From positions 4,292,855 through 4,356,854 of the forward strand of contig JAWLBI010000001.1 in NCBI GenBank assembly GCA_041394985.1: a stretch of DNA of 64,000 bases, written 5' to 3'. Position numbers and translations under genes: made by a program. The stretch comes from Candidatus Zixiibacteriota bacterium. Lineage in GTDB: Bacteria; Zixibacteria; MSB-5A5; GN15; JAAZOE01. Position 1 is the first letter of the stretch; every line of letters starts with the position of its first letter. Under the pieces are notes generated by a model. It had not been told where the DNA came from, did no database searches, and was given only the letters and a program-made list of their open reading frames with translations. Shown piece after piece: positions 4,869 to 56,802 of this stretch.

Positions 4869-4870
4869 CG

Positions 4871-13369: not shown

Positions 13370-13426
13370 ACCGACGCGCCCTGACTGAATGGGGTGTCGC
13401 CGGAGCTTAATCAATCCCACGACATC

Positions 13427-13465
13427 GCCGCCGCCCGAGTAAATCGGGCGGCGGTTTTATATTTG
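13427..13465 (+). terminator. rho-independent terminator after paralog A
   Basis: Stem GCCGCCGCCCGA...TCGGGCGGCGG followed by TTTTATATTT. A second hairpin (GGCAGATGT/ACATCTGCC) lies immediately downstream. Confidence 0.65.
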
Positions 13466-13730
13466 TGGGCGGCAGATGTCCACATCTGCCAACTCTTGAC
13501 CTAAGCATAGCCTGCACCGTGAACGTTTTATATCATTATAAGTAGCACAATATAATATTAATAAATGCTTGCATATTTCTTTATATATATGTATGATACG
13601 AATGTCGAACACAAACATCTTTGCCATTCCCAGCCTCACACAATACAACACTACGTTCAAACCGCCGCTTAATATAGTGCAGTAATTTTTACGCACTTGA
13701 CACAGGCATGAAACATCGAGGAGGAGCCGT

Positions 13731-14504: not shown

Positions 14505-14542
14505 TTACAAAAGGGCGACTGGCCTGACTAACCGGCGGTGAG

Positions 14543-24499: not shown

Positions 24500-25897
24500 G
24501 TGGAATTTATCAACAGTATTTTCAGCACTCTCGGCTCCTACATCTGGGAATTTCCCGAAGAATTCCCCCTGATGCTTATTATCCTGCTGGGAACCGGATT
24601 GTTTGTGTCGTTCCGCCTCGGATGGATACAGTTGCGTCGCGTCAAGCACGCCATAGACATCACACGAGGGAAATACGACAATCCGGAACACGAAGGGGAT
24701 ATTTCACATTTTCAGGCGCTCTCCACGGCCCTCTCGGCAACTATCGGTATCGGCAACATTGCCGGAGTCGCAACAGCCATCCACTATGGCGGTCCGGGCG
24801 CCTTGTTCTGGATGTGGGTGACCGGAATCCTCGGAACGTCTCTTAAATATGCCGAGTGCACGCTGTCGATGAAATACCGCAAAATCAACCCCGACGGTTC
24901 GGCATCCGGCGGACCGATGTATTATATCGAACATGCCCTTGGATGGAAGTGGCTGGCTATCATATTTGCGGCGGCCGCCTCGATGTGCGCGCTGGCCACC
25001 GGCAATGCGGTTCAAGCCAATACCGTCGCAGATCAGCTCAAGTCCGATTTCGGCATCAGCGTCTATGTTACCGGCGCCGTCATCGCAGTTCTCGTCGCCA
25101 TGGTCATTCTGGGCGGCATTAAGCGCATTGGCAGAGTTACCTCGATACTCTCACCATTGATGACCGTCATCTATGTCATCGGGGCGCTGTCCATCCTCAT
25201 CATACACATCGATCAGGTTCCCGGAGCATTCGCCACGATTTTTTCCTCTGCCTTCTCCGCCGAAGGGGCAACGGCAGGATTTGCCGGAGCGACATTTATG
25301 CACTGTCTCATCTGGGGCGTCAAACGAGGATTATTCTCCAACGAGGCCGGGCAGGGATCGGCGCCTATCGCGCATGCCGCCGCTAAAACCGATGAACCGG
25401 TTCGCGAGGGCACTGTCGCCATGATGGGACCATACATTGACACCATTACGATCTGCTCGCTGACCGGACTCGTCATCGTTATTACCGGAGCATGGAATGC
25501 CGTCGATGCCGCAGGTAATGGTCTTTTTCTGAATGGATCTCCCCTGACCTCGTATGCATTTTCCCAGGGATTGGCTGTAATTGGCGGATGGGGTGGATAC
25601 ATCGTCACCGCGGCGGTTTTATTATTCGCGACATCCACTATTATTTCCTGGTCGTACTATGGCGACCGGTCGATTCAATATCTCTTCGGAGATAAGGTCA
25701 TTTTCCCGTATCGCATACTGTTTTGCATTATGATTTTCTGGGGAGCGGTAAGCCGCCTGGAAGTTGCCTGGGCCTTCGGCGATTTCGGCCTTGGATTGAT
25801 GGCGCTGCCGAACCTCATCGCACTCGTTGCCCTCTCGGGCGTTGTCGTCAAACTGACGAACGATTACTATTCGCGCGAACACATCCCGTACAAATAA
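24500..25897 (+). CDS. alanine/glycine:cation symporter (AGCS family)
   Basis: 465 aa. N-terminal region and TM topology match sodium:alanine symporters (GNIAGVATAI...GGPGALFWMW). Confidence 0.8.
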   Translation: MEFINSIFSTLGSYIWEFPEEFPLMLIILLGTGLFVSFRLGWIQLRRVKHAIDITRGKYDNPEHEGDISHFQALSTALSATIGIGNIAGVATAIHYGGPGALFWMWVTGILGTSLKYAECTLSMKYRKINPDGSASGGPMYYIEHALGWKWLAIIFAAAASMCALATGNAVQANTVADQLKSDFGISVYVTGAVIAVLVAMVILGGIKRIGRVTSILSPLMTVIYVIGALSILIIHIDQVPGAFATIFSSAFSAEGATAGFAGATFMHCLIWGVKRGLFSNEAGQGSAPIAHAAAKTDEPVREGTVAMMGPYIDTITICSLTGLVIVITGAWNAVDAAGNGLFLNGSPLTSYAFSQGLAVIGGWGGYIVTAAVLLFATSTIISWSYYGDRSIQYLFGDKVIFPYRILFCIMIFWGAVSRLEVAWAFGDFGLGLMALPNLIALVALSGVVVKLTNDYYSREHIPYK

Positions 25898-25984: not shown

Positions 25985-26542
25985 CTAGCTTAAGTGACCG
26001 CTGATAAGCTTGGTCATCTCGAACATATTGACTTTTTTCTTCTTGCCGAAGACTGCGAGCAGTTTATCGTCAGCAATGATTTCCCGTTTGTTTTCCGGGT
26101 TCTGCAATTTGTTCTTCTTGATGTAGTCCCAAACTTTCTTGGTGACTTCAGTCCGAGGAAGCGGCTTTGAACCGACGATGGCGGCAAGCTCGGCAGACGG
26201 CGTCATCGGTTTCATGAAGGCCGCATTCGGTTTGCGCTTTGTCGCTGTTTTTTTTGTCGTCTTCTTCATAGTTTTTTTTGGTGCTTTCTTAGCTACTTTC
26301 TTAGTGGTTTTCTTGGCGGCCGGTTTCTTGGCCACTTTCTTCTTCGGAGCGGCTTTCTTCTTGGCGGCCGGTTTCTTCTTCGGAGCTGCCTTCTTCGCCG
26401 TTGTCTTCTTCGTCACTTTCTTCTTCGTTGTTACTTTCTTCGTCACTTTCTTTTTAGTGGTTGCTTTCTTGGCGGCGGGTTTCTTGGCTGCCGGTTTCTT
26501 AGCCGTTTTCTTGGCGGCGGGTTTCTTCTTTGCAGTTGCCAT
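25985..26542 (-). CDS. histone H1-like Lys/Ala/Pro-rich protein fused to a SWIB/MDM2 domain
   Basis: The first ~105 aa are AKK/PAAKK repeats. The C-terminal ~80 aa match the SWIB consensus (ELAAIVG...TEVTKKVWDYIKKNKLQNP.NKREI..DDKL..VFG...MFEM.KLIS.HL). Strong RBS AAGGAG. Confidence 0.75.
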   Translation of the reverse strand: MATAKKKPAAKKTAKKPAAKKPAAKKATTKKKVTKKVTTKKKVTKKTTAKKAAPKKKPAAKKKAAPKKKVAKKPAAKKTTKKVAKKAPKKTMKKTTKKTATKRKPNAAFMKPMTPSAELAAIVGSKPLPRTEVTKKVWDYIKKNKLQNPENKREIIADDKLLAVFGKKKKVNMFEMTKLISGHLS

Positions 26543-26790: not shown

Positions 26791-28053
26791 CTACCCCTCT
26801 AATTCCTCAAGGAGGTCTTTGGTCCCCTGATGTTCGGGATTAATCTCCAGTGCCTTCTTCAGACATCGGATGGCCTCCTTCTTGTTCCCTGCTTCCTTAT
26901 ATGCAATCCCCATGGACCGATAGCAGAATCCGGCATAATCCCCCTCGGGATACTCCTCGACCGAGATACTGAAGAATTTGACGGCATCCATCTTCTTATC
27001 ATTTGAATACAACTTGTACCCAATGATGAGAGAGGTCACCTCATCGAAGCCATACTCCTCGGATTCGGTCGCCTTCAGTTTATGATACAGTGCCACGGCA
27101 GCGTCGATGCCTTCGTCCCGATAGGCATAATATATCGGTCTGTAGATATCCTTCGTCTCCGCCTTGGGGTGTTGGGCATCCTCTATTCCATCGGCAATGC
27201 ACGTCAACCAATGATCTCTGGACGTATAACTACCGTCATAGGACTCGAATTGCTTCAGGGCATCTTCCTCCTGTAGAGTAGCCTTATCCTTTCCCGAGGC
27301 CAATCCTTCGCGCACGATGTCCTCCGACGTACTGAGCATATGGAGAAACTTGCGGGCGTCGTCCATCGTGCAATCGGCTCCGTGTCCGGGGATTATTTTT
27401 ACGTCCTCGGGAAGTATCGCCAACAGCCGGGCTACCGTCTCCGGATACTCCAGGACATTCCCGGTTTTACCGTCGACCGAGGGAAAATGAAACCCATTGA
27501 GGATGGCTCCGACAAAAACGATTTTCGACTGGACAAACCAGATGATAATATCGCTGTTGTCGTGGGCTCCGCCGAAATACATCATGCGAATATCTTCATC
27601 GTTAAACCGCAGATTCAAGGAGTCGTCGAATTCGAGTTCAGGCAGGGCCTCTGAAGGAAACTCGTCGAACAGATAGCTGCCGCTCATGAGCCTCGACCGG
27701 ACATTGCGATGCCCGATAATAAGGGGCTCTCGCCCGAAAGCCATATTGCCGCCCGTGTGCTCAATATGAGAATGACTGCTGATAATGATTTTCGGATTGC
27801 CATAGCCGAGTTGCGCCAGCTGTTTTTTGAGCGCCTCGCCGGCCTCCTTTTCGCCGGCATCAACAATGAGCAACCCATCGGGACCGACCAAGGCCAATAC
27901 CTTGACAGTATAGCCGCCGCCATCCGTTTCGAACTTATAGATATTTTCCGATAGTTTACTCACGGAATAGACCGAATCATCCTGTGCCCCCACAAGACCG
28001 GAACAGGTGTAGCATGCCAAAATCAGCACGATGTACCATTTCATGGATTTCAT
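26791..28053 (-). CDS. MBL-fold metallo-hydrolase with C-terminal TPR repeats, secreted
   Basis: Signal peptide after the internal Met (MKSMKWYIVLILACYTCSG). H-x-H-x-E-H (SSHSHIEHTGG) metallo-beta-lactamase motif. TPR-like C-terminus. Confidence 0.55.
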   Translation of the reverse strand: MKSMKWYIVLILACYTCSGLVGAQDDSVYSVSKLSENIYKFETDGGGYTVKVLALVGPDGLLIVDAGEKEAGEALKKQLAQLGYGNPKIIISSHSHIEHTGGNMAFGREPLIIGHRNVRSRLMSGSYLFDEFPSEALPELEFDDSLNLRFNDEDIRMMYFGGAHDNSDIIIWFVQSKIVFVGAILNGFHFPSVDGKTGNVLEYPETVARLLAILPEDVKIIPGHGADCTMDDARKFLHMLSTSEDIVREGLASGKDKATLQEEDALKQFESYDGSYTSRDHWLTCIADGIEDAQHPKAETKDIYRPIYYAYRDEGIDAAVALYHKLKATESEEYGFDEVTSLIIGYKLYSNDKKMDAVKFFSISVEEYPEGDYAGFCYRSMGIAYKEAGNKKEAIRCLKKALEINPEHQGTKDLLEELEG

Positions 28054-28308
28054 ACTTTTCCCTTCCTTCCTACCGCATGCATCAAAGAACAAAGCCAAAT
28101 TAGTCTATTTTGAGTATTGTCCGGTCGGGATAATTCTTGCAGGGAAAAGCGTGATAAAAAAAATATGGCCGTGGACTTATTGCCTCTCGGTCTAAATTAG
28201 TTCGGGTATTTCCCGAAAATATGTATATCGCTCGCTAAAGCGTTTTATTGACAGAATGGCGCAGGTCGCCTATATTGCGAATAGAGAATCTACTATCTCG
28301 GAGAGCAC

Positions 28309-30675
28309 GTGAAAACTACCGCCGGCATTATCAGTATTATCCTGTGTCTTGTCGCAGTACTTTCTGCCAATCCATCCGTGCATATCGAACGTTTCGTTAC
28401 GACAAACCCCTCGGAACCGATAACTCTGGCCATAACGCTCGAAAACCAATCCGGATTCCAAACCGGCGGCTTCGACCTTGTCATAGACGTAGACAATACC
28501 TTCTCTATCGAATCGGTAACGGCCGGAGACATCCTCGGCCTCTGCGAGTGGGAAGCGTTTACTTACGAATTGTTGCCGGATAGCAGCATTCATATCACCG
28601 CAATGGCGGAGACCGCTAATGGCCCCTATCACCCGGACTGTTTTCTCGATACATCCGGAGTATTGGCATATATCACTCTCGAAACCAATGCCAACTTTAC
28701 ATTTTGCGAGTTTTTCCCGATTCGCTGGAAATGGTATGACTGTGGAGATAACGCCTTCAGCTCTCGTCTCGGCGATACGTTATATGTATCAGACGAGGTT
28801 TATGATTACAACGGACATGCCGATATCCCCATCGCCAGGGATACGACATTTCCGACAATATATGGTGCTCCTGAATCCTGCATGCCTCTTCCTCGCGAAA
28901 TTGATTTTTATAACGGCGGCATCTGGGTTGTCATAAATGATTATACGCCGCCTGTCATCGACTGTCAGGATGATACGACTGTTTACAGTGACCCTGGCGT
29001 TTGCGGAGCGGTTGTTGAATTCACTCTTAATGGGTGGGATGACTGCGGCGGCATTGAATTATCCAGTAGTCCGCCGAGCGGCGCGACATTCCAGATTGGC
29101 GAATCACCGGTCTTTTGTCTGGCCCGAGATGCCCTGGGAAATGTCGATACCTGTTGGTTTACGATAACCGTTATCGACACACAGTCCCCGCAAGTCGTCT
29201 GTCCCGCCGACACGATCGTAGCGAGCCGTCCGGGCGCCTGCAGCGCGATTGTTCAATATGTTGCTGATGTTATCGATAACTGCCCGGAAACCTATGCCTG
29301 GTGTAATCCTGCGCCGGGTTACAATTTCCCCATCGGAGAAACGACCGTTCATTGCACGGCGACCGATGCCGCAGGGAATACCGATACCGGCTCATTTACC
29401 GTCACTGTGGTCGACGCTGAGCCACCGACAATTGACTGCCCGGGGGATATCCTGATTAACAACGAAACCGGTTTGTGCGGTGGGTATCTATCATATGAAC
29501 CGACCATTTCGGATAATTGCTCCGGAGTATCATATACGATGACTCCGGCCTCGGGAAGTTACCTAACGATAGGAGAACACCCGGTACAAATCATCGCTGC
29601 GGATGCGGCCGGGCTTGCAGATACCTGCTCGTTCCTGGCCATCGTAGTAGATGCCGAACGCCCAGTCATCACTTGCCCGGATACGATACGAGCGACAGCC
29701 GCAGCCGGTGAATGCGGATCTCTTGTCTCGTTTTCAGCAGACGCCGAAGATAATTGTCAGGGAATCAATTTTATCTATTCTCCTCCGGCGGGTTCATATT
29801 TCCCCGTTGGGACATCTCCTGTTCGGGCTATCGCCGTCGACACCTACGGTAATGCCGACACCTGCATGTTTACGGTCATTGTTGCCGATACCGTCGCTCC
29901 GGTGATAACTGTCCCGGATCTGGCCTATGGCCCGGCCGACAGCGGCCAGTGCGGAGCGGTGATTACATTTGACATCACGGCTGAAGATAATTGTACAGCG
30001 ACGCAAATTACCGCAGAACCGCCATCGGGTTCATATTTCGAAATCGGAGAAACAACCGTTGTGGCCACGGCGTCAGATGCCTTCGGTAACAGCGTGAGCG
30101 ACTCGTTTACCGTATTCGTCTATGATATTCAAAAACCGATTGTGACCTGCCCCGGTGAGACATCACTCCTTAGCGACTCCGGTTATTACGGCGCCTTCCT
30201 GTCATTCGATTTCGATGTGACCGATAACTGCGACAGCGTCTATGCCATCGCCGAGCCTCCTTCCGGGAGCCTCTTCCTTGCCGGAGTGACCGAGGTTCAT
30301 GTTATCGGTATCGATAAAACGAACAATCGCGATACCTGTTCGTTCCTCGTCACCGTGACCCTTGTGGATGCAGACAACGATAGTATTCCTGATTGGGATG
30401 ATAATTGCCCGTTCGATTCGAATCATGATCAGAACGACGCCGACGGTGACGGCATCGGAGATGTCTGTGACTGGCGCCACGGTGATGCCAATGGAGACGA
30501 CTCCTTCAATATCGGCGACGCCGTATTTCTTATCTCGTATATCTTCAAAGGCGGCCCGGCTCCCTTCCCGCTCCTGGCAGGCGATGCCAACTGCGACGGC
30601 AGCGTGAATATCGGTGACGCCGTCTACCTCGTCGATTATATCTTCAACGCAGGCCCCCCTCCTCCCTGCCCATAA
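28309..30675 (+). CDS. secreted protein with six tandem HYR (hyalin-repeat) domains and a C-terminal dockerin-type double EF-hand repeat
   Basis: GTG start with a GGAGAG RBS. Signal peptide. Six ~80-aa repeats, each with C-P...G.CGA.V.F....DNC....SPPSGS.F..G.T.V...A.D..GN.DTC.F.V.V.D. C-terminal DANGDDSFNIGDAVFLISYIF and DANCDGSVNIGDAVYLVDYIF dockerin-like calcium-binding repeats. Confidence 0.7.
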   Translation: MKTTAGIISIILCLVAVLSANPSVHIERFVTTNPSEPITLAITLENQSGFQTGGFDLVIDVDNTFSIESVTAGDILGLCEWEAFTYELLPDSSIHITAMAETANGPYHPDCFLDTSGVLAYITLETNANFTFCEFFPIRWKWYDCGDNAFSSRLGDTLYVSDEVYDYNGHADIPIARDTTFPTIYGAPESCMPLPREIDFYNGGIWVVINDYTPPVIDCQDDTTVYSDPGVCGAVVEFTLNGWDDCGGIELSSSPPSGATFQIGESPVFCLARDALGNVDTCWFTITVIDTQSPQVVCPADTIVASRPGACSAIVQYVADVIDNCPETYAWCNPAPGYNFPIGETTVHCTATDAAGNTDTGSFTVTVVDAEPPTIDCPGDILINNETGLCGGYLSYEPTISDNCSGVSYTMTPASGSYLTIGEHPVQIIAADAAGLADTCSFLAIVVDAERPVITCPDTIRATAAAGECGSLVSFSADAEDNCQGINFIYSPPAGSYFPVGTSPVRAIAVDTYGNADTCMFTVIVADTVAPVITVPDLAYGPADSGQCGAVITFDITAEDNCTATQITAEPPSGSYFEIGETTVVATASDAFGNSVSDSFTVFVYDIQKPIVTCPGETSLLSDSGYYGAFLSFDFDVTDNCDSVYAIAEPPSGSLFLAGVTEVHVIGIDKTNNRDTCSFLVTVTLVDADNDSIPDWDDNCPFDSNHDQNDADGDGIGDVCDWRHGDANGDDSFNIGDAVFLISYIFKGGPAPFPLLAGDANCDGSVNIGDAVYLVDYIFNAGPPPPCP

Positions 30676-31184: not shown

Positions 31185-32816
31185 TTATGATTTGGAGGGC
31201 AAGTTACCTTTATCGGTAGCTTTCTTTGCTGCCATTTCATCTTCATTCAGAGATAAACCTATTTTACCAAGCAGTCCCTTCACATCAATACCGGCCGCCT
31301 CAGCCTGTTCGATGAGCTGGAACAGCATCAGCGGTCCTGTCTTAGCGAAGCGATTCAACGCGCCGGAACCATCCTTACCGGTTCCGCCATTGCCGCCGCT
31401 GTCGACGACGACCAGTTTATCGATATTGCCCATCGGCGCGGAGATGGCGCCGAATACCGTACCGACCGATTCGATCGCCGGCGGCAACGCCTTGACCAAT
31501 TCGAGAATCAACGCCTTATCGTTGAAGTTGCCATAGGCATCGGAAACTTTGAGCAATGCCTCGGCTCGAGCCAAACCCTGTTGTTTGATAACTTCGGCCT
31601 CGGCCAGACCCTGTTCGCGAATCACCTTCGCCTGTGCAAGACCTTTGGCCTCGATCGCCATAGCCTCACCGGTACCTTCCACTTCACGTTTGTGGTTTTC
31701 GGCGTCGGCTCGCGCGATGATATCGTATTTATCACCGTCGGCGCGGGCCAGTTTGGCCTGTTTATACCCTTCGGCCTCCCTGATCTGTGCATCGGCTTTG
31801 GCCTTTGCGGGAACGACGATAACCGCCTCCTGGGCCTTTTGCTCTCTGAGGATGTTTTGCTCTTCCACAGCAATCTGCGCACGAGACTGTTCTTCCTCAA
31901 TCTTGACTTCGGCGACGATAACTTTCTGCCGTTCCTGGGCGGTCGACAGCGGTCCCGCCTGCTCGGTCTTCGCAGCCTCGCGTGCGACTTCGGCGTAGTA
32001 GGTCTGCTTGGCGACATCGGCGTTTTTGCGCGCCTCGGCCATCAACTTTTCGTTGCTCTGCGCAACAACTTCCGCCGCTCGCTCAGCATCGGTCGATTTC
32101 TTCTTCGCTTCCGCCAGCGCCTCGGCCTCACCAATGGATGCGTCTCGTTTGACTTCGGCCGTCTTTGTCTTACCCAGCGCATGGATATACCCCTGCTCGT
32201 CGGTAATCGACTGCGGGTTAAAGACGTCGATCTGCATACCGAGCCGGGTCAGGTCATCGCCGGCCTCGCCGAGAACCTGCTGTCTGAATTTATCGCGGTC
32301 TTTAATAAGCTCGTCAACCGTCAGCGTACCGACGACGCCTCGGAGGTTCGCCTCCAGCGTCTCGCGAGCAGTCGATACGATATTGTCTCGCTGCATACCG
32401 AGGAACCGGGCGCCGGCGGCAAGGAGTGATTCGCCATCATCCTTAAATCGAATATTGGCAACTGCCTCGACCGTGACAAGAACGCCGTCGATGTTCGGCA
32501 TGTTTTCCACGCGAATCTGAGGGAGGGTGATTTCCGACAAATCAAGAAACTGTACTTCCTCGATGATCGGCTTTCGGATGCGACCGCCGCCGGTAACGAC
32601 AACCGTTCCGGGAGGCAGTACTTTCACCTGGTCACCAGTTTCTTGTCTGAGCGTTTGTATTTTGCGATGGCCGCTTCGGGCGCCATAAAAGAAGGCTGCC
32701 TTGTTCGGGGGAACCCGAACATAGAATGCGGACAGGGTTTTGACAAGGACAAAAAAGGCCACGACTATGGCTAAGCCGATAACTGGCCAGGTCAGGTTTT
32801 CTACGAGGAAATCCAT
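31185..32816 (-). CDS. floT: flotillin-like SPFH/band-7 protein
   Basis: N-terminal TM helix, then an SPFH domain. Long Ala/Glu/Lys-rich coiled-coil repeats (EA repeats). 543 aa. Upstream NfeD partner. Confidence 0.85.
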   Translation of the reverse strand: MDFLVENLTWPVIGLAIVVAFFVLVKTLSAFYVRVPPNKAAFFYGARSGHRKIQTLRQETGDQVKVLPPGTVVVTGGGRIRKPIIEEVQFLDLSEITLPQIRVENMPNIDGVLVTVEAVANIRFKDDGESLLAAGARFLGMQRDNIVSTARETLEANLRGVVGTLTVDELIKDRDKFRQQVLGEAGDDLTRLGMQIDVFNPQSITDEQGYIHALGKTKTAEVKRDASIGEAEALAEAKKKSTDAERAAEVVAQSNEKLMAEARKNADVAKQTYYAEVAREAAKTEQAGPLSTAQERQKVIVAEVKIEEEQSRAQIAVEEQNILREQKAQEAVIVVPAKAKADAQIREAEGYKQAKLARADGDKYDIIARADAENHKREVEGTGEAMAIEAKGLAQAKVIREQGLAEAEVIKQQGLARAEALLKVSDAYGNFNDKALILELVKALPPAIESVGTVFGAISAPMGNIDKLVVVDSGGNGGTGKDGSGALNRFAKTGPLMLFQLIEQAEAAGIDVKGLLGKIGLSLNEDEMAAKKATDKGNLPSKS

Positions 32817-32855
32817 CAGTTATACCTCCCTATGGATGTTGCACAACACACTATT

Positions 32856-33377
32856 CTACAGTTTCTGCACTTTCACGGAATTGCCGATTCTGGACACGAT
32901 TTTCACGGGCGTACTTTTCGGGATTGCCTCGCCGTCCTCGACATTCATCGCGACAAATGTCACTTCGCGCCCCTGAATAATACAGGCAACCTGGCCACGG
33001 CCACCGGCCGGAACGGCATCTATGAGTGTGCCGCTGGCGCCGATGATATCCTGATTGCCGATTGTCGAATTGGCCTGGCTCATATACATGGCCCGGATAA
33101 TCAAATATCCGATGATTCCGACGACAATGGCGCCGCCGATGCCGGACATTGAGGCAATGAACATAGTGGCATCCGTGGTCGCTCGAATACCGAACGCCAT
33201 GGCGCCGAAACCGACCATCAACAACGATATCATCTTCAGGCTGAATATGCTCGGTCCATGATCGAAACCATGATCGAAGTCGCCGTCGACATCGGCATCG
33301 ACATCATCGCCTCCGAAAATGAGACTCGATATGAGCAGTAAAAAACCAACGCCGAAAATAGTTGCGAACAGTATCAT
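32856..33377 (-). CDS. NfeD family protein (short form, OB-fold)
   Basis: TM helices plus a C-terminal OB-fold beta-rich segment. Sits immediately upstream of flotillin, like the yuaF-floT arrangement. Confidence 0.65.
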   Translation of the reverse strand: MILFATIFGVGFLLLISSLIFGGDDVDADVDGDFDHGFDHGPSIFSLKMISLLMVGFGAMAFGIRATTDATMFIASMSGIGGAIVVGIIGYLIIRAMYMSQANSTIGNQDIIGASGTLIDAVPAGGRGQVACIIQGREVTFVAMNVEDGEAIPKSTPVKIVSRIGNSVKVQKL

Positions 33378-33603: not shown

Positions 33604-33617
33604 TTGACCTAAGTCAA
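33604..33617. promoter_or_regulatory. candidate Crp/Fnr-family (HcpR/FNR-like) binding site TTGAC-N4-GTCAA upstream of the octahaem cytochrome operon
   Basis: Perfect 14-bp palindrome TTGACCTAAGTCAA. A -10-like GATATT/ATATTA lies about 30 bp downstream, which is class II spacing. The same palindrome type occurs upstream of hcp. Confidence 0.5.
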
Positions 33618-33814
33618 GGAAATCATCGGGCCCGAAGTCGATATTAGTACCGGTAACCGAGTTCACCTAATTATTGACTTTTTTATTGCGGGAGCCGCCA
33701 ATGCGCAATATCATGAAATACGGGCTGGAATCTTCGACCACATCATCCATGACATGCGCTCATTCACATCAGACTTATATCAATGTTCATGATAGAGATA
33801 AGGGGAGTATAATC

Positions 33815-35140
33815 ATGAAGCGGATGGGTATCCTGGCGAGCCTGTTGCTCGCACTGTTTTTAGTATCGGCGCTTCAGGCCGACAATGCCGAGATTGCCGG
33901 AAAATGTATGACCTGTCACAAGGAGAAATCGCCGGGACTGTACAAACAATGGTATATGTCCGAGCATGCCAATCACAAGGTCACCTGTTATGACTGCCAT
34001 CAGGCTCAGAGCGGCGACGCCGATGCGTTCATGCACGAAGGCGCCCTCATTGCCACACTCGTGACGCCGAAGGACTGCGGTAAGTGTCACCAGAAGGAGA
34101 TGACCGAGGTCAGCAATTCCTACCATGCGACCGCCGGAGAAATCCTGGAATCGGCCGATGCCTATCTGGCCCATGTTGCGGCCGGTGAGCCGGTTGCCAT
34201 TACGGGATGCGAAAACTGCCACGGAGGTAAAATTAAAATCGACCCCGCATCACCGAACAAGTTATCATCGAAATCCTGGCCGAACTCGGGAATCGGTCGC
34301 CTGAATCCGGACGGCTCCAAGGGTTCCTGCAATGCCTGTCACACTCGGCATTCGTTCTCAAAAGCTCAGGCGCGTCAGCCGGAGGCCTGTTCCAAATGTC
34401 ACCTCGGTCCGGACCATCCGCAAAAAGAGGTCTATGAGGAGTCCAAACACGGTAATGCCTACTATACACATATTGACCAGATGAATCTTAAATCCGACTC
34501 TTGGGTCGTCGGCGTCGACTATTTCGAGGCCCCGACCTGCGCCACCTGTCATATGTCGGCAACGACTCAATCCGGTGTGACGCATGATGTCGGCAATCGC
34601 ATCTCCTGGACGCTCCGTCCGCCGATTTCCAAGCATAAGGAAAACTGGCAGGAAAAACGCAATAATATGAAGATGGTGTGCACATCCTGTCACGGCCAGA
34701 CATTCGCTGATGGCCATTACTATCAATTCGACGCTGTCGTCGAACTGTATAATGAGAAATTCGCCAAACCGGCTACCGAGATGATGAAGATTATCCGCGA
34801 TAATAAGCTCATGGAAAACCCGGCCAGTTTCAGCAACAAGGTCGAATGGACCTACTGGGAGCTGTGGCACCATGAAGGTCGCCGCGCCCGCCACGGCGCT
34901 GCAATGATGGGACCGGACTATACCTGGTGGCACGGTCTGTATGAAGTCGCCCAGCATTTCTATTTCAAGATGATTCCCGAGGCGCGCGAGTTCAACAATC
35001 CCGAACTGAACGCCTACATCGATAAAGTACTCGCCGATCCTATGCACGAATGGATGAGCACCGACACCAATTCACTCAAGGAAGCCATCCGTTCCGGAAA
35101 GATGCAAAAAGTGTACGAAGAGATGTTCGACAAAAAATAG
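33815..35140 (+). CDS. octahaem c-type cytochrome (HAO/OTR/ONR superfamily-like), secreted
   Basis: Likely start ATG 33815 (RBS AGGGGAG), then signal peptide MKRMGILASLLLALFLVSALQA. Eight CxxCH motifs (CMTCH, CYDCH, CGKCH, CENCH, CNACH, CSKCH, CATCH, CTSCH) in about 440 aa. Confidence 0.75.
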   Translation: MKRMGILASLLLALFLVSALQADNAEIAGKCMTCHKEKSPGLYKQWYMSEHANHKVTCYDCHQAQSGDADAFMHEGALIATLVTPKDCGKCHQKEMTEVSNSYHATAGEILESADAYLAHVAAGEPVAITGCENCHGGKIKIDPASPNKLSSKSWPNSGIGRLNPDGSKGSCNACHTRHSFSKAQARQPEACSKCHLGPDHPQKEVYEESKHGNAYYTHIDQMNLKSDSWVVGVDYFEAPTCATCHMSATTQSGVTHDVGNRISWTLRPPISKHKENWQEKRNNMKMVCTSCHGQTFADGHYYQFDAVVELYNEKFAKPATEMMKIIRDNKLMENPASFSNKVEWTYWELWHHEGRRARHGAAMMGPDYTWWHGLYEVAQHFYFKMIPEAREFNNPELNAYIDKVLADPMHEWMSTDTNSLKEAIRSGKMQKVYEEMFDKK

Positions 35141-35149
35141 GGGTCGACC

Positions 35150-36643
35150 GTGCTTGATAAATATATCAATTTCGTTCGCGGCGTTTCGGTGAACATTGTG
35201 GGAAAGATTGGGGTCGTCCTGACGACCTCGTCTTTTTTCACGTTCGTCCTGCTGGAAGTCGCCCGCATAGCGGGGCTTCTGACCAACGCCTATATCGGGC
35301 TGATAACCTATCTCCTCCTGCCGGCCCTGTTTATCATCGGACTATTGCTTATCCCAATTGGCTGGCGGATGTGGAAAAAACAGACCGGGAAAACGACTCA
35401 ACAATTGCTTTCTGAGCGGTTCGATGATACCGACATCAAGGGTGGGCTGTTCGGTTCCCGATTATTTCTGTCGGTTGGCATATTCACGGTTATCAATATT
35501 ATCTTTCTCGTCGGCGCCAGTTCACGAATGCTCACCTTTATGGACGGCCCGGAATTCTGCGGTACGGCCTGTCACACCGTTATGAATCCTGAATGGGTGA
35601 CCTATCAGCAATCTCCCCATGCGCGCGTCGATTGCGTCGATTGCCATGTCGGCGAGGGAGTCGATGCCCTGATTAACAGTAAACTCAACGGCACCTGGCA
35701 GATGATTTCGGTGACGTTCGATTTGCTGGACCGCCCCATTCCGACGCCGGTGCACCAACTTCGGCCCGCTCGAGAGACATGTGAAAAATGCCACTGGCCG
35801 GACAAATTCTATGGGAGCCGCCTGAAAACGATTACGCACTATGACTCTGACGAACAGTCCACCCGTAAGTTTACGACCCTGAACCTCAAAATCGATGCCG
35901 GGACCGGCGCCAAAAAATCCGGCATTCACTGGCACGTCGCGGCAGAAAACCTTGTTCGCTACGCCTCGGTCGATGATGAGCGCAAGGAAATGATCTGGGT
36001 CGAGGTTTTAGAGCCTGACTGGTCATTCAAGAGATATACCAACAGGCGCCTTAAGGATGTCGATCCTTCGCACGAGAGTATCCGGGTTCTCGATTGCGTC
36101 GACTGCCACAACAGAGCAACCCATATTTATGAGTACCCATCCGATGCTATTGACAGCCGTATTGCGGCAGAGATGATCGACCATTCTCTACCCTATATCA
36201 AGCGCGAGGCGCTCAAGGCGGTATCGGCCCACTATGTCGATACGGCGGCCGCTCGTGAGGGCATCGCCAATAGTATCGCCTCTTTTTATCGTACAACATA
36301 TCCCGAGGTCGCACGCTCTAAGTTCGATGCCATCGATAAATCCATTGCGGCTGCGCAGGCGGTGTATGCCCGAAACATTCATCCGTATATGAATATCACC
36401 TGGGGAAGTTATCCGAACTTTCTGGGACATCGTGGCAATTCCGGTTGTTTCCGCTGTCATAATGATAACATGGTCGATGATGCGGGAACTCCGATTTCGT
36501 CGGACTGCGCACTCTGCCATTCGATTCTGGCCTACGGCAGCGAGCAGGCATTCGAATATCTCAATCCAGCCGACACGGCCTCGAAGGACTACCTGATGCA
36601 CGAATACTTGCGGCAGGAATTTCTGGATTATATTAAGAAGTAA
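35150..36643 (+). CDS. membrane-anchored hexahaem c-type cytochrome (putative quinol-oxidising partner)
   Basis: Two N-terminal TM helices, then six CxxCH motifs (CGTACH, CVDCH, CEKCH, CVDCH, CFRCH, CALCH). Starts 10 bp after the octahaem gene. Confidence 0.7.
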   Translation: MLDKYINFVRGVSVNIVGKIGVVLTTSSFFTFVLLEVARIAGLLTNAYIGLITYLLLPALFIIGLLLIPIGWRMWKKQTGKTTQQLLSERFDDTDIKGGLFGSRLFLSVGIFTVINIIFLVGASSRMLTFMDGPEFCGTACHTVMNPEWVTYQQSPHARVDCVDCHVGEGVDALINSKLNGTWQMISVTFDLLDRPIPTPVHQLRPARETCEKCHWPDKFYGSRLKTITHYDSDEQSTRKFTTLNLKIDAGTGAKKSGIHWHVAAENLVRYASVDDERKEMIWVEVLEPDWSFKRYTNRRLKDVDPSHESIRVLDCVDCHNRATHIYEYPSDAIDSRIAAEMIDHSLPYIKREALKAVSAHYVDTAAAREGIANSIASFYRTTYPEVARSKFDAIDKSIAAAQAVYARNIHPYMNITWGSYPNFLGHRGNSGCFRCHNDNMVDDAGTPISSDCALCHSILAYGSEQAFEYLNPADTASKDYLMHEYLRQEFLDYIKK

Positions 36644-36658: not shown

Positions 36659-36692
36659 AAGGCAGATTTTTCCAAAAATCTGCCTTTTCTAT
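36659..36692. terminator. bidirectional terminator hairpin between convergent cytochrome and L,D-transpeptidase genes
   Basis: GGCAGATTTTT...AAAAATCTGCC stem followed by TTTTCT. Confidence 0.6.
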
Positions 36693-37461: not shown

Positions 37462-38625
37462 TTATGCCGACCTGAGGGAATCGACAATATTCAGATACGC
37501 CGCCCGGATGGCCGGCAGTACCCCGCCGACGAATCCCATCACCAGTGCAAAAACCACCGCCGCGATGACGATATTCGTATTCAGGCTGAATCGAAATGCC
37601 ACATCGGTGAAGGTACTCCAGTTCGTCGTAGACACCTCGACCAATTGCAAAAAGTACGATCCAACAATTCCGAATACGCCGCCCAGTAGCGATAGGACAA
37701 CTGCTTCGAGTAGGAACGATGTTAATATTGCGAATCGGCCGAACCCGAGTGTCCGCAGTGTTCCGATTTCTCTTGTCCGGTTGGCCACTGCAGCATACAT
37801 GGTAATCATCGCACCGACGATTGCGCCCAGACTGAAGATGACGCTGATGATCATTCCCGTGATGCCCATAAAGGTGGAAAACATCTCGGATTGCTCCGCA
37901 TAATACACTTTCTCTTTTTTGACATCCAGCGGAAGCCTCCGGTCGTCCTCGATGCGCTGTTTCAGAGCCGCAAACTGCGTCGTATCGGCCATGCGAAAGG
38001 TCAGCGAGGAATAGATTGGTCGTCTGAAGGCATCGGCCATTTGCTGATACTCACCCCAGACTTCTGATTCGAACCCGGAGTCTTCTCCCTCAAAAACTCC
38101 GACTATCGTCCAGTTGCGAGCGCCGAAGCGGACTGTCTCGCCGAGACCGCATCCCTTGAATTTCTCCGCGATCTTGCGACCGGCGATAATTTCGGATCCG
38201 GGATCCTGCCACATCCGCCCCTCGACGATTTTAACATCCGGGCGCAACTCAAATGATTTTTCGGTGATACCCCGGACCGTAACATTGCCGTCCTCATTCG
38301 TCGCGCGAGTCGGAACCGTAATCAGAACAAAAACCTCGTGCGTGATCAGAGGCGTTCCATCCTTGGCCTTGGCGATTTCCGGGAAGGTCTGAACTATTTG
38401 TCCCTGTTCCAGATTTATAATCGACATGACTTCCGATTGTGATGCCTTGCGGATACAAATGACATTATCGTCATTGCCGGTACTGACCAGCGTCTCGGTC
38501 ATGCCGTTCGTGAGCATCTGTGACCCGCAGAATACGAAAACGACCAGGGCGATACCGAAAATCGTCAAACCTGATGTCACCTTGCGGTTCAGGATATTTC
38601 TGAATGTATAGCTTGGAGGAATCAT
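37462..38625 (-). CDS. ABC transporter permease (FtsX/MacB-type)
   Basis: N-terminal TM helix, large periplasmic domain, C-terminal FtsX-like 3-TM bundle. 387 aa. Confidence 0.75.
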   Translation of the reverse strand: MIPPSYTFRNILNRKVTSGLTIFGIALVVFVFCGSQMLTNGMTETLVSTGNDDNVICIRKASQSEVMSIINLEQGQIVQTFPEIAKAKDGTPLITHEVFVLITVPTRATNEDGNVTVRGITEKSFELRPDVKIVEGRMWQDPGSEIIAGRKIAEKFKGCGLGETVRFGARNWTIVGVFEGEDSGFESEVWGEYQQMADAFRRPIYSSLTFRMADTTQFAALKQRIEDDRRLPLDVKKEKVYYAEQSEMFSTFMGITGMIISVIFSLGAIVGAMITMYAAVANRTREIGTLRTLGFGRFAILTSFLLEAVVLSLLGGVFGIVGSYFLQLVEVSTTNWSTFTDVAFRFSLNTNIVIAAVVFALVMGFVGGVLPAIRAAYLNIVDSLRSA

Positions 38626-38637
38626 GATTCGTCCCTT

Positions 38638-39795
38638 TTAATCCACTACTCGCAAACCGTCAACGATTCTTATGCGCAGCGCCCGCTGTATCGGGAAAAT
38701 CGCCGCAATGAGACCGACAATGACAGCCGTTATCAAACAGACTATAAACGTTGTCGGTTCGACCGTAAATCCCGGGAAGAACTGCTTGAGTCCCTCCTTC
38801 GCGACATTCGCGGCCATTTCCAACAGTCCCATTCCGATAACACCGCCGATGATGGCAATCAACAGTGATTCACCCAGAATCAGACCTGCCAGATGATAGC
38901 CTCGGAAACCGAGTGTCTTCATAAACGCATTTTCAGAAATTCGCTCGCGAGCCGTCATCGTCATAGTGTTAACGAGCACCATCAGAATAACACCAATGAT
39001 GAGGTACGATACGATTCGCAGGCCGAGAATAATCGCACTCGACAATTCGATAAAGCTCATCTGAAATTCCTTTTCCGTCTCGGTTCTGGTCTCGGCCCAA
39101 GAGTTATCGAATTGTTTATCGACTGCGGCACTTATTTGCGCGGAACGACTCGGATCATCGATTTGTAATGCGTACCAACCAACCTCACCGGCTCGTCCCG
39201 GTGACTGCTGTCGCATCGTCTCGTCAAGATAATCGTGGCGCATATAAAAAATCGTCTCATCCGTATCCGTCCGGGCGCCGGTGTAAATTCCTCGGATGAT
39301 AAAATCCCAGTCCCCCGGATACACCGTTCCGATAAGCGTCACTTTATCGCCGATCGACCATCCGAACCGGTCGGCCAGCCCCTGTCCGACAATTACCGCT
39401 TTCCGCTCATTCTTAAATGCCTCGAACTGCTCCGGGGAAATTAAAAATTCCGGGAAGATATCGAAATAATTCGTGTGATCGATACAGAACTGCGGAAAGA
39501 AATTCGACGGATCCACATAGAAACCGCCGAACCAGTTGGCGTATGTCACCGCCTTGACGCCTTCGACCTTCAACAGTCGCTCTTTATACGACATGGGAAG
39601 TGTAAAAACGATGGAAACAGCGTGGCGGGTAATTAGTCTGTCGGGCGCCGCTGCCCTCGCCCCGGCATACCAGGCGGAAATGAATGTCTTGATGAGCCCG
39701 AAGGCCATCACCGCGAGGGCAATGCCGAGAATCGTCAAGAACGTCCGCAGCTTATGCCGAAAGGCGTTTTTATAAACCAATTTAAAGACTTTCAT
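38638..39795 (-). CDS. ABC transporter permease (FtsX/MacB-type)
   Basis: Same architecture as 37462..38625. 385 aa. Confidence 0.75.
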
Positions 39796-40475
39796 CGGTC
39801 CAGCACTCCCTTGTTCAAATGGCGAATCAGTTCGGCCTTTTCGGCCGCACTCGGATCGTGCGTAACCATGATAATCGTCTTATTAAATTCCTTATTGAGC
39901 CGTCCCAGCAGCGTCATAATTTCCTCGGCCGACTGCTTATCCAGATCACCGGTCGGCTCATCGGCGAGAATAATTGACGGATCGGATACGATGGCCCGCG
40001 CAATCGCAACGCGCTGTTCCTGACCGCCGGACAATTGCCGGGGATAATGTTTCATCCTGTCACCCAATCCGACTATTGATAGGGCCGTCTCGACATGCTG
40101 GCGGCGCTCCTTTCCAGACAGATTGGTCAATAATAGCGGCAATTCGACGTTCTCGTATGCCGTGAGAACCGGGAGCAGATTATAAAATTGAAAGACAAAT
40201 CCGATATGCCGGGATCGCCACTTGGCCATATCGCCATCGGATAAGCGGGAAATATCCTCTCCGGCCACGGATAAATGGCCCGCCGTCGGTTGATCAATAC
40301 CGGCAAGCAGATTCAATAGTGTTGTTTTACCCGACCCGGATGGTCCCATCAGGGCCAAGAATTGCCCGGTCGGTACATCCAGATCGATTCCGTGCAAAAC
40401 GGGTATTTCCATCGCCCCGCGAAAATATGATTTCGTCACACCGGAGAGCTTAACCATTGTCTCAGACATACACAT
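39792..40475 (-). CDS. ABC transporter ATP-binding protein (MacB/LolD-like)
   Basis: Walker [10 protein letters not shown], signature LSGGQEQR, Walker [12 protein letters not shown]. 227 aa. Confidence 0.88.
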
Positions 40476-40482
40476 CTATCCC

Positions 40483-41676
40483 TTATTGAGAAATTTCTAT
40501 TTTGTCGCCAGATTTCAGGCCACCCGGGGGAGACAGCACAACAGTCTGTCCCGCCGACAGTCCCGATACGATTTCGGTTTCATCTCCCATCCGACGACCG
40601 ATAGTGATCGCCTGCTGCGAGACATATTCGCCGTCGACGACAAATGCCACCGTCTGGCCGTCTCGGGATGTAATCGCACCATGATCCACGACTAATACGG
40701 GCTCGACATATTGATCCTCGCCGGATTTCTCCGGAAGGAAATTCACGCGCGCCGACATTTCCGGCAATACCTTGTCATCCAGATTGGAAAACGCAACTTT
40801 GACCATCACGGTCGCCCGCGAGCGATCCGCAGTAGGAACAATTTTCTTGACGAATCCGGCATAAGTCACATCCGGATAGGCGTCTAAAATGATTTCACAC
40901 GGCGCGCCGATCTTAACCTTTTGAATATTCGACTCGGACACATCGGCCTCGACCTCCAGTGACCGCATATCCGCAATCGTTACGACTGCGCCCCGGGAAG
41001 ATGCCGACGATGCAAATGGCGCGACCATTTCACCGACATCGGCATTTTTTGTCAGGACTGTTCCATCAAACGGCGCCTTGATAATTGTGTACTCAAGGTC
41101 CACTTCGGCGGCTCGCACAGCCGCCCGCGACGCCTTTACGGATGCCGCCGCCTTGGCAAACGCGGCAGTGGCTGCTTCCACGACTTCAGCAGTCGTATAA
41201 TCGGATTCCCTGAGTTTTATCTGCCGCCGCAGGTTGAGCTCCGTCTCGATCGAATCGGCCAGGGACAAGCTCAGATTCGCCTCGGCAATTGCAAGCTGCG
41301 CCTTGATATCTTCGTTGTACAACTCGGCCAGTACTTCATCTTTCGTGACGACATCGCCCTCTTCGACGTTGAGGACCCGCAGTCGCCCGGTCGCTTTCGA
41401 TGCGACCGCCGCCTTTACCTGGGCGACGACATAGCCGGTCGCCACCAACTCCGCTGTAGCATTACTGCCGGTAATCGTATAGGCCGTGGCCGTCCGAACC
41501 TTCAGTGACGGGCGGATTTCTCGAATCGATGCCTGATAGGCAAAATATCCGATAATGATCACCGGAACCCAGAGAAGGTGGAGCCATCGCTTCCATCGGC
41601 CGGGGGGTTTTGTTTTTTTTGAGCGGTCTATTTTCAATGCGGATAAATCCGCACCATGAGCATTCGAATCCGTCAT
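40483..41676 (-). CDS. efflux transporter periplasmic adaptor subunit (MacA/HlyD family)
   Basis: N-terminal TM anchor, coiled-coil hairpin, beta-barrel and MP domain pattern. First gene of the minus-strand efflux operon. Confidence 0.75.
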   Translation of the reverse strand: MTDSNAHGADLSALKIDRSKKTKPPGRWKRWLHLLWVPVIIIGYFAYQASIREIRPSLKVRTATAYTITGSNATAELVATGYVVAQVKAAVASKATGRLRVLNVEEGDVVTKDEVLAELYNEDIKAQLAIAEANLSLSLADSIETELNLRRQIKLRESDYTTAEVVEAATAAFAKAAASVKASRAAVRAAEVDLEYTIIKAPFDGTVLTKNADVGEMVAPFASSASSRGAVVTIADMRSLEVEADVSESNIQKVKIGAPCEIILDAYPDVTYAGFVKKIVPTADRSRATVMVKVAFSNLDDKVLPEMSARVNFLPEKSGEDQYVEPVLVVDHGAITSRDGQTVAFVVDGEYVSQQAITIGRRMGDETEIVSGLSAGQTVVLSPPGGLKSGDKIEISQ

Positions 41677-46924: not shown

Positions 46925-48139
46925 ATGCGGCTGACGATCAGCAAAAAATTTGAAATCTCGCTCTCCTATCGCCTGTACAACCCGGCCTGGACCGAGGGAA
47001 AAAATCGGGAAGTCTATGGTCAAAAAGTCGGGACCACTCACGGCTTCGGCGGGAATTTCAATCTATATACGGTCTTCGACGGCCCCGTCGATCCGAAGAC
47101 AGGGATGCTGATTAATGTCGTCATCGTGAAAGAGAGGATCAAACGCCTGCTTGCCGAACGCTACGACCATAAATTTCTCAATCGAGATACGCAGCCGTTC
47201 GATACGATTGTCCCTACTCCAGAGAATATCATTAGGCAGATATTCAAGGAATCTGCGCCATTGTTTGCCGGTGAATCGGCCAATCTCACGGCCTGTCATC
47301 TGACGCTGTCACCATGGGATGAGGCCACGGCCTATGCCAATGGAACGATCGAGAGGCATTATCTGGCCGATTTCTCCGCCGCCCGCAGAACCTATTCCCC
47401 GCATTTAGGCGACGAGGAAAACTCACGCCTTTTCGGTATCGCCGCCTCGCCATCCGGTCATGGACATCATTACACGCTGCGCGTGACTCTGGCTGATTCG
47501 GTAAATGCTGAAACCGGCATGCTCACCGACGATGTAATTGCGCGACGGACAATCAACGACATCGTAGCCGAATTCGATCATCGCAACATTACGACCGATA
47601 TTCCGGAATTCAAGTCAATCCCCAACACGACCGAATGTCTGGCGAGATATTTCTATGATCGGCTAAGCGAAACTCTCCCTGTTACTCGTGTGAAGTTACA
47701 TGAGAATCCCTGGTTTTACTGTGAATACACCGGCAACAATCATGCCGTCATGGGAATAGAAACCAACTTCAATGCCGCTCATCGTTTGCATAGCCCTAAA
47801 TTATCGGACTCAGAAAACTGTGACATTTACGGCAAATGTAACAATCCGGCCGGACACGGTCATCGCTATCGAGTCGAGGCGGCCTTCGACGGGCAAATTG
47901 ACAGGAAGACTGGCATGCTCTATCCGTTGGATATTATCGTTAAAAGCATGTCCGACATCCTAAAAGACTGGAATTACAAACATCTCGATGCCGATACCGG
48001 GGATTTTACCGACATCCCCAGCACCGGCGAAAACATTATCACAATTTTGCAGAATAAGATAAACGAGCGAATAGATTATCCCATGTATCGCCTGCGCCTC
48101 TGGGAGACACCCAACAATCGTTTTACTCTGCGACGCTAA
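46925..48139 (+). CDS. triplicated 6-pyruvoyl-tetrahydropterin synthase (PTPS/QueD-fold) protein
   Basis: Three ~135-aa repeats, each ending in a ...ETGML/KTGML segment. Repeat 3 has the full C-x5-HGH motif (CNNPAGHGH). Repeat 2 has HGH but an Ala at the Cys position. Repeat 1 has only THGFGG. Confidence 0.75.
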   Translation: MRLTISKKFEISLSYRLYNPAWTEGKNREVYGQKVGTTHGFGGNFNLYTVFDGPVDPKTGMLINVVIVKERIKRLLAERYDHKFLNRDTQPFDTIVPTPENIIRQIFKESAPLFAGESANLTACHLTLSPWDEATAYANGTIERHYLADFSAARRTYSPHLGDEENSRLFGIAASPSGHGHHYTLRVTLADSVNAETGMLTDDVIARRTINDIVAEFDHRNITTDIPEFKSIPNTTECLARYFYDRLSETLPVTRVKLHENPWFYCEYTGNNHAVMGIETNFNAAHRLHSPKLSDSENCDIYGKCNNPAGHGHRYRVEAAFDGQIDRKTGMLYPLDIIVKSMSDILKDWNYKHLDADTGDFTDIPSTGENIITILQNKINERIDYPMYRLRLWETPNNRFTLRR

Positions 48140-53966: not shown

Positions 53967-53981
53967 ACCTGCTCCGCCGCC

Positions 53982-56788: not shown

Positions 56789-56802
56789 TTGACCTGAGTC
56801 AA
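56789..56802. promoter_or_regulatory. candidate Crp/Fnr-family (HcpR-like) binding site TTGAC-N4-GTCAA upstream of hcp
   Basis: Perfect palindrome TTGACCTGAGTCAA centred about 80 bp upstream of the hcp ATG. A TACACT -10-like hexamer lies about 30 bp downstream, which is class II geometry. Confidence 0.55.

Follow-up and report, generated by a model that had tools for sequence, protein, structure and literature searches.

Within a 64-kb stretch of a metagenome-assembled genome (MAG) of Candidatus Zixiibacteriota, referred to here as the window, two co-directional genes, A and B, encode multihaem cytochromes c. They are the sole open reading frames (ORFs) of at least 100 amino acids (aa) in the window that carry at least two CxxCH motifs. 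Homologues of both genes were counted in protein clusters, genome contigs and metagenome loci. The two genes and the hairpin that follows them, at 16 nucleotides (nt) past the stop of gene B, are:

33815-35140, plus strand: gene A, 441 aa, ATG start; predicted periplasmic octahaem cytochrome c of the HAO/IhOCC clade
35150-36643, plus strand: gene B, 497 aa, GTG start; predicted inner-membrane multihaem quinol dehydrogenase of the ImcH family
36659-36686, no strand assigned: terminator-like hairpin with a stem of 12 base pairs (bp), between convergent genes; a consensus match only, from a pattern scan

Both genes lie where the initial annotation, made from the bare sequence, had placed them, with a spacing of 9 nt instead of the 10 bp given there. 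A longer ORF starting from a TTG codon at 33674 was rejected for gene A, since the homologues are 440-447 aa long and align from the ATG at 33815 (residue 1).

The product of gene A carries exactly eight CxxCH motifs (residues 31, 58, 88, 132, 172, 192, 242 and 289) behind a Sec-type N-terminal signal peptide (residues 1-22; MKRMGILASLLLALFLVSALQA/DN), as had been described for it. All 16 cysteines of the protein sit in these motifs, with no other cysteine present, and the eight motifs were invariant across 26 homologues, so that the set is not a product of chance. The protein had initially been placed in the superfamily of hydroxylamine oxidoreductase (HAO), octahaem tetrathionate reductase (OTR) and octahaem nitrite reductase (ONR), and our comparisons upheld the HAO part of this placement while offering nothing for the other two. 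A matched the Pfam family PF13447 (Multi-haem_cyto) with 97.4 bits against a cut-off of 21.9 (E 1e-27). Among solved structures in the PDB (thresholds E<=1 for the A sequence and E<=0.01 for the A family profile), its best relative was the octahaem protein IhOCC (4qo5; E 8e-46, and 3e-57 with the family profile), followed by N. europaea HAO (NeHAO; 1fgj, E 6e-21), Kuenenia HAOr (6h5l, 1e-18), KsHAO and HDH; matches to NrfA were marginal (0.1 to 2e-4). At the same thresholds the structures of OTR (1SP3), ONR and MccA (4RKM) gave no match, and HAO-family chains and weak NrfA hits were all that appeared. Moreover, A contains no CxxCK active-site motif of the NrfA/ONR type, does not match the NCBIfam model octaheme_Shew, and has neither an MccA-type CX15CH motif nor an extra cysteine for a Cu site. 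As judged from its sequence, A is a member of the HAO/IhOCC clade, on the side of IhOCC.

Residues of a catalytic pocket were also recognizable. The pair D200-H201 of A, located after the sixth haem motif and invariant in the 26 homologues, aligned with D267-H268 of NeHAO, and R268, invariant in the A family, occupies the column of NeHAO Tyr334, a known specificity position. In a published classification IhOCC is grouped with HAO and HDH in clade 1 and treated as an octahaem nitrite reductase devoid of the P460 cofactor (PMC9250108), and HAO homologues without the cross-link are regarded as reductases (PMC8042395).

Gene B turned out to differ from its first description as a protein with two transmembrane (TM) helices and six CxxCH motifs. 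It encodes five CxxCH motifs (residues 162, 211, 316, 433 and 453) plus one CxxxCH motif (CGTACH, residues 137-142), and it has three N-terminal TM helices, as seen both from Kyte-Doolittle hydropathy peaks (approximately residues 16-45, 47-72 and 100-125) and from AlphaFold helices (16-40, 47-79 and 104-131). Nor could the initial statement be maintained that such a hexahaem partner is not a described type. In a BLASTP comparison, B aligned over nearly its full length with ImcH of G. sulfurreducens (36% identity over 479 aa, B residues 14-481, E 2e-111; the sequence compared, P0375, falls in the same 90% cluster as authentic ImcH, AAR36650.1, 'Cytochrome c-type protein ImcH'), and it bears the signature of the ImcH family, which consists of three TM helices, one CX3CH and 5-9 CX2CH motifs (PMC4251993; PMC6295460), with 6-10 haem motifs across its members (PMC6295460). 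The motifs of Geobacter ImcH (GSU3259) start at positions 132, 156, 205, 311, 428, 448 and 486 (PMC6295460 Table S3), and for haems 1-6 the spacing in B (25/49/105/117/20) matches that in GSU3259 (24/49/106/117/20). What B lacks is the seventh motif: none was found past residue 457, where a conserved tail of 40 residues stands instead. The seventh, solvent-exposed haem is the proposed exit haem of ImcH and is a feature of the Geobacter subgroup that does not define the family; indeed, homologues with six motifs were already included in the 2018 survey, from Anaeromyxobacter, Geothrix, Acidobacteria and Zixibacteria RBG-1 (PMC6295460 Table S3). On sequence grounds B is thus best described as an ImcH-family cytochrome, of a type already known. 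This family is large, with 2844 clusters (50% identity) at E<1e-3 and 602 at E<1e-30, and among the 150 best cluster representatives the architecture of B (three TM helices, CX3CH and five CX2CH) was the commonest (56), while the Geobacter architecture with six CX2CH occurred in 22.

The surroundings of the first haem are shared with ImcH in part. Haem 1 of ImcH is unusual in its His/Gln character, with H137, K173 and Q179 highlighted (bioRxiv 10.1101/2023.05.03.539133), and these three residues have their counterparts in H142, K178 and Q184 of B, with no variation in either the B clade or the Geobacter ImcH clade. Of two further positions, ImcH E127 is replaced by Asp132 and Tyr188 by Leu193, which makes three of five identical and one conservative. 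As a separate observation, the stretch FCGxxCHxxMxPE (B residues 136-148) is invariant in both clades and places a Met at His+3, while the haem-1 ligand Met of NrfH is found at His+2, so that one may ask if haem 1 of ImcH-type proteins is ligated by Met and not by His.

The quinol dehydrogenase character that had been proposed for the partner found support in a module of the NapC/NirT/NrfH type. Residues 106-215 of B are NrfH-like (PDB 2j7a_C, E 2e-5), Pfam PF03264 (NapC/NirT N-terminal region) covers residues 111-190 only (33.4 bits, cut-off 24.1; 5e-8), and in the AlphaFold model of B (predicted local distance difference test score, pLDDT, 70) NrfH was the sole meaningful structural match (probability 1.0, target TM score 0.55, 111 columns), with no match among solved structures for the remainder of the protein. 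The NCBIfam model for NrfH scored 61.8 bits, under its cut-off of 134.2 (7e-17), and those for NapC, TorC and Cgr1 stayed far under theirs. B therefore contains an NrfH-like module, yet with three TM helices, six motifs and a score under the NrfH cut-off it is neither NrfH nor NapC.

The two genes are strictly paired. A metagenome scan with B returned 571 relatives, from which 80 loci were kept, and in all 59 loci with at least 1350 bp of upstream sequence an A homologue lay directly upstream of B on the same strand; the shorter loci, wherever their upstream sequence exceeded about 500 bp, all showed a partial end of A. The A homologues in the kept loci were 63-77% identical, and the gap between the genes was 10-55 nt with one exception of 145 nt. 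The pairing also held in all four contigs found from B homologues (two of Zixibacteria type, one of Melioribacteraceae and one of Calditrichaceae), and distant relatives of B, at 52% and 40% identity, likewise had an A homologue as partner. Conversely, starting from the A homologues of Thermoanaerobaculales, Eisenbacteria and a Caldithrix MAG, we found a B partner in each case. A is more conserved than B, its top database homologues being 71-86% identical and coming from several phyla. We conclude that A and B form a self-contained, fixed module present in several phyla, in agreement with the initial proposal of a self-contained unit. The pairing is nonetheless no general property of six-motif ImcH homologues, an idea ruled out by P0127, a six-motif homologue (43% identical to B) that stands alone without an A partner, and Geobacter imcH, which has no A-type partner, stands alone too, as published.

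Around the pair, little else recurred. Among 140 flanking ORFs, the recurrent neighbours were an Alginate_exp barrel (10), Rrf2 regulators (4) and ferredoxin-like proteins (4), and none besides; no outer-membrane cytochrome, MtrAB-type or sulfur-metabolism gene recurred. The outer-membrane barrel gene (PF13372) was found by the pair in roughly a fifth of the loci (about 10/48, and also in L092 and L094), for example at 5929-6654 in locus L003, 5173-6441 in L005, 5287-6588 in L006, 2767-3981 in L094 and 6864-8099 in L092. It mostly lies directly upstream of the pair, in which case the regulatory box described below precedes the barrel gene, and it is absent from our window. In the Calditrichaceae locus, Rrf2, hemerythrin/DUF438 and DUF1858 genes lie upstream of the pair. 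In the Melioribacteraceae locus (L001, GCA_016927595.1), nrfH-nrfA are found immediately upstream, and a Rieske/cytochrome b operon and a gene for a 538-aa HAO-like octahaem protein downstream; the regions 4358-6480 and 12093-15246 of this locus bring together three putative quinol-linked multihaem reductase systems within 11 kb. The 538-aa protein is 35% identical to A and carries the sequence GADYTQWHG.

A link to nitrogen-oxide metabolism came from the upstream region of gene A, which shares a regulatory box with a gene for the hybrid-cluster protein:

33604-33617, no strand assigned: HcpR/FNR-type palindromic box TTGACCTAAGTCAA, 211 nt upstream of the start codon of gene A
56789-56802, no strand assigned: second HcpR/FNR-type box TTGACCTGAGTCAA, 73 nt upstream of hcp, differing in one central base from the gene A box
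56875-58551, plus strand: hcp (hybrid-cluster protein, annotated 'hydroxylamine reductase'; Pfam Prismane, 3e-165), outside the operon

The window holds only three TTGA-N6-TCAA sites, and two of them are these near-identical boxes, about 23 kb apart. About 0.002 exact matches to the box would be expected in the window, and a copy with no more than one mismatch would arise by chance within 150 nt of hcp with a probability of about 5e-5. The box ahead of A (TTGACnnnnGTCAA) fits the HcpR consensus wyTTGACnnnnGTCAArw, a consensus that was derived in other bacterial groups, namely Geobacter, Desulfuromonas and cyanobacteria (PMC1274295). In Geobacter and Desulfuromonas the HcpR regulon includes nrfHA, and predicted regulons often hold cytochrome c-like genes (PMC1274295). 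Of 55 related loci, 10 had a generic form of the box upstream of the A homologue (expected 0.027 per 450 nt, P about 2e-6). The exact form TTGAC-N4-GTCAA occurred 13 times in 707 kb of related loci, in 10 cases no more than 200 nt ahead of A itself or ahead of a barrel gene or ORF preceding it, and two more loci had a box 95 and 246 nt upstream of A. A GATATT hexamer at 33640-33645, if used as a -10-like element, would put the gene A box near position -41.5.

As candidates for the box-binding factor, genes for Crp/Fnr regulators flank the pair in L006 (3356-4033, an unclassified bacterial MAG) and L093 (7169-7843, an Eisenbacteria MAG); their products are 50% identical to each other and have a helix-turn-helix of the E--SR type. 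The window itself yielded no gene for a Crp/Fnr or Rrf2 regulator (for Crp/Fnr, by tblastn with the L006 regulator). From its box, hcp is a candidate for a gene co-regulated with the A-B operon. Taken with the gene neighbourhoods in related loci, the box speaks for nitrogen oxides and not for metals or sulfur, and a nitrogen-oxide substrate is favoured because the HcpR-type box is common to A and hcp. Within the range of substrates first suggested (an N-oxide, hydroxylamine or a sulfur compound), the nitrogen side is the more likely one.

With moderate confidence, we propose that A and B form an operon for a quinol-dependent periplasmic reductase of nitrogen oxides (nitrite, nitric oxide (NO) or hydroxylamine), analogous to NrfHA. 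According to this model, B, held in the inner membrane by its three helices, would oxidise menaquinol beside the CX3CH-bound haem 1, as NrfH and Geobacter ImcH do, and would release protons to the periplasm while the electrons run along its six haems. For ImcH, menaquinol oxidation with proton release to the P-side has been shown biochemically (bioRxiv 10.1101/2023.05.03.539133), and it is by analogy that we expect the same of B. The electrons would next be handed to A as a fixed partner, with the 40-residue tail taking the place of the seventh haem of ImcH; we infer this direction of flow, and the contact between A and B that it implies, because the pairing is invariant and the free exit haem has been lost. 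The soluble A would then reduce the nitrogen oxide at its fourth haem, where the distal Asp-His pair and the Arg are expected, converting nitrite, NO or hydroxylamine towards ammonium. That the substrate is a nitrogen oxide we infer from the clade membership of A, its Asp-His-Arg pocket and the regulatory link with hcp. Finally, a regulator of the CRP/FNR family, presumptively of the HcpR type, would switch on the operon together with hcp under nitrite or NO.

The direction of catalysis would be the reverse if A carried a Tyr-haem (P460) cross-link. As an oxidative HAO, A would take hydroxylamine, hydrazine or a related compound as its substrate, with B working backwards as a quinone reductase. 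The residue that speaks for this is Tyr369 (GPDYTWWHG), which is Tyr in 190 of 192 homologues and lies in a loop between two long C-terminal helices of A, the loop in which NeHAO has its cross-linking Tyr467 (GGWTYTEGW, likewise between long C-terminal helices). In the HAO/IhOCC family, long C-terminal helices build the trimer interface. The AlphaFold model of A, built with 26 close homologues that are all at least 71% identical, gave helices at 303-329, 342-365 and 367-391, mostly with fair local confidence (pLDDT 53-96 by block, lowest at 361-370), in an otherwise poor and unusable model. Hidden Markov model (HMM) alignments put Trp491 of IhOCC and Val482 of HAOr opposite Tyr369, and both of these proteins are without the cross-link. 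The initial annotation had recommended examining the context of the cross-linking Tyr. The alignment between NeHAO and A around Tyr369 was not significant, with pairwise registers differing by 1-3 residues; phmmer searches with the C-termini of A, NeHAO and HAOr returned self or noise only, and in hmmalign the NeHAO C-terminus stayed unaligned. (The NeHAO sequence used was verified by its length of 570, by an HMM score and coordinates the same as those of 6m0p_A, and by a C-terminus 100% identical to 4fas_A 420-505.) Tyr347 of A was considered as the cross-linking residue and discarded, as the cross-link-free HAOr also has Tyr at that column. In addition, two close homologues have Phe at position 369, and none of the oxidative HAOs comes nearly as close to A as the reductive IhOCC does. 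The carrier phyla consist mostly of anaerobes that are not known to possess ammonia monooxygenase, which also weighs against oxidation. We consider a cross-link in A very improbable, and the oxidative function as a whole hardly less so. Equally improbable, in our estimate, is its wider consequence, that the operon of anaerobic Zixibacteria, Calditrichota, Ignavibacteriota and Acidobacteriota oxidises hydroxylamine, hydrazine or NO-derived compounds and feeds quinone via a reversed ImcH-type cytochrome; were it true, nitrifiers and anammox bacteria would not be alone in having an oxidative nitrogen-cycle module, and this one would have gone unrecognised.

Two further possibilities would leave B as a quinol dehydrogenase and change the destination of the electrons. 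In extracellular electron transfer, or transfer to soluble metals, B would be the quinol oxidase of an export chain, A a periplasmic carrier or metal reductase, and the Alginate_exp barrel the passage through the outer membrane. B is indeed a true ImcH homologue, ImcH is needed for high-potential extracellular acceptors and the related phyla include iron reducers such as Melioribacter (PMC4251993), and the barrel gene adjoins the pair in the loci listed above. Yet A keeps the catalytic Asp-His pair and is conserved beyond B to a degree typical of an enzyme, outer-membrane cytochromes and MtrAB-type genes do not recur among the flanking ORFs, the box is shared with hcp, a nitrosative-stress gene, and a partner of this kind is missing from Geobacter imcH, which alone in the family has a proven role in extracellular electron transfer. 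We consider this explanation unlikely. Still less probable is a sulfur-compound reductase (of sulfite, tetrathionate or polysulfide) in the manner of MccA or OTR. Sulfur compounds are the substrates of these octahaem relatives, promiscuity is known from several members of the family (PMC9250108), and Desulfovibrio HcpR regulons include sulfur-metabolism genes (PMC1274295). However, A matched neither OTR nor MccA at our structural thresholds and has none of the CX15CH or Cu-site features, its five-coordinate haem is expected in the C-terminal module, as in HAO and IhOCC, and not in the N-terminal module, as in OTR and MccA (PMC9250108), and sulfur-metabolism genes were not recurrent nearby.

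Several points nevertheless weigh against nitrogen-oxide reduction by A and B. ImcH itself acts in extracellular electron transfer, and the recurrent barrel is a companion that the nitrogen-oxide model does not need. The neighbours of the pair in the window (flotillin/NfeD, YkuD and a MacB efflux operon) are unrelated to such a function. In the Melioribacteraceae locus, the NrfHA genes beside the pair would make plain nitrite ammonification redundant. The nearly invariant Tyr369 sits in the cross-link loop and, if cross-linked, would make catalysis oxidative, and the AlphaFold model of A (pLDDT 49) is too poor for use.

As to the rest of the window, a flotillin-like SPFH/Band 7 protein (543 aa) and an NfeD-like membrane protein are encoded at 31185-33377 on the minus strand, divergent from gene A. 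Two MacB/FtsX-type ABC efflux operons, each with an HlyD-family adaptor, lie on the minus strand at 37462-41676 and 51488-55343; only the former has a confirmed ABC ATPase gene. The same MacB operon is found downstream of the A-B pair in the relative L089, which indicates that this synteny is conserved within Zixibacteria. A secreted 788-aa protein with six HYR domains and a C-terminal dockerin type I domain is encoded at 28309-30675 (plus strand), and a 404-aa protein with three matches to 6-pyruvoyl-tetrahydropterin synthase (PTPS), an unusual multi-domain arrangement, at 46925-48139 (plus strand). Lastly, a TTCTTC-rich tandem-repeat tract with units of 15, 18 and 30 nt (score up to 102) occupies 26331-26527, in a 0.9-kb stretch between two ORFs of at least 220 aa (24500-25897 and 26791-28098), and may represent a repetitive, low-complexity coding segment of the minus strand.

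The ImcH family, the HAO/IhOCC clade and the general design of a quinol dehydrogenase joined to a multihaem reductase have all been described before. The initial annotation had left room for the pair being a previously characterised operon type, and in the literature searched, a search that was incomplete and leaves a prior description possible, we found no account of the fixed HAO-like/ImcH-like operon, its breadth or its HcpR-type box; the 2018 survey says of imcH genes only that they are 'often associated with genes encoding c-Cyts' (PMC6295460). A large, multi-phylum branch of the six-motif ImcH group is hard-wired to an HAO-family enzyme, with an HcpR-type box for nitrite or NO. This matters for the interpretation of metagenomes, where 'hao' is taken as a marker of hydroxylamine oxidation and imcH has been put forward as a help in the prediction of metal-respiring strategies (PMC4251993). 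The main text on FeGenie contains no mention of ImcH as an iron-reduction marker. If our model is true, many 'imcH' and 'hao' calls from sediments and aquifers are signs of neither iron reduction nor nitrification; they would stand for a quinol-linked reductase of nitrogen oxides of a third kind, next to NrfHA and epsilon-Hao. The model also suggests that Geobacter ImcH descends from a dedicated enzyme anchor or is its sister, and such an origin offers a way to test how ImcH selects its partners.

Compared with known systems, B resembles Geobacter ImcH (GSU3259) in its three TM helices, the CX3CH motif next to the third of them, the spacing of haems 1-6, the haem-1 Lys and Gln and the NrfH-like core. 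It differs by a non-haem C-terminal tail in place of the seventh haem, by Leu in place of ImcH Tyr188, and by its setting: Geobacter imcH is monocistronic and its product donates to PpcA, whereas B shares an operon with an octahaem enzyme. With NrfHA, the pair has in common that a gene for a NapC/NrfH-type quinol dehydrogenase stands beside one for a periplasmic multihaem nitrogen-oxide reductase, with NrfH aligning to B residues 106-215. In contrast to B, NrfH has one helix and four haems, and its first motif is CxxCHxM and not CX3CHxxM; the pentahaem NrfA has CxxCK at its active haem, while the octahaem A has a His-ligated CxxCH there; and the gene order of A-B is enzyme first, then anchor.

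On the enzyme side, IhOCC of Ignicoccus hospitalis (4QO5) likewise has eight haems and aligns with A through haems 2-8 and the C-terminal helices, but it is archaeal and longer (521 versus 441 aa), the stretch from haem 7 to haem 8 being larger by about 100 residues, and it has a Trp at the position of Tyr369; it is not known to have an ImcH-type partner. HAOr of Kuenenia stuttgartiensis (Kustc0458/0457, 6H5L) is also an HAO homologue without the cross-link that is encoded alongside a dedicated cytochrome, and it reduces nitrite, NO and hydroxylamine (PMC8042395). Its partner, however, is a soluble dihaem cytochrome, it matches A more weakly (1e-18), and its product is NO in anammox metabolism. 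Comparable to our proposal are also epsilon-Hao with its cytochrome of the NapC/NrfH type (the 'reverse HURM' of Nautilia and other Campylobacterota) and the Hao-dependent ammonification of Caldithrix and Deferribacter. For these, reduction of nitrite and hydroxylamine by an HAO-family octahaem protein has been proposed or shown, with electrons from the quinol pool delivered by a NapC/NrfH-family cytochrome or a Rieske/cytochrome b complex. In comparison, A forms a distinct and shorter subfamily, and its partner B is of the ImcH type and not a tetrahaem cM552/NrfH. By analogy, then, the logic of the A-B operon is that of NrfHA and of the 'reverse HURM', with another anchor and another HAO subfamily.

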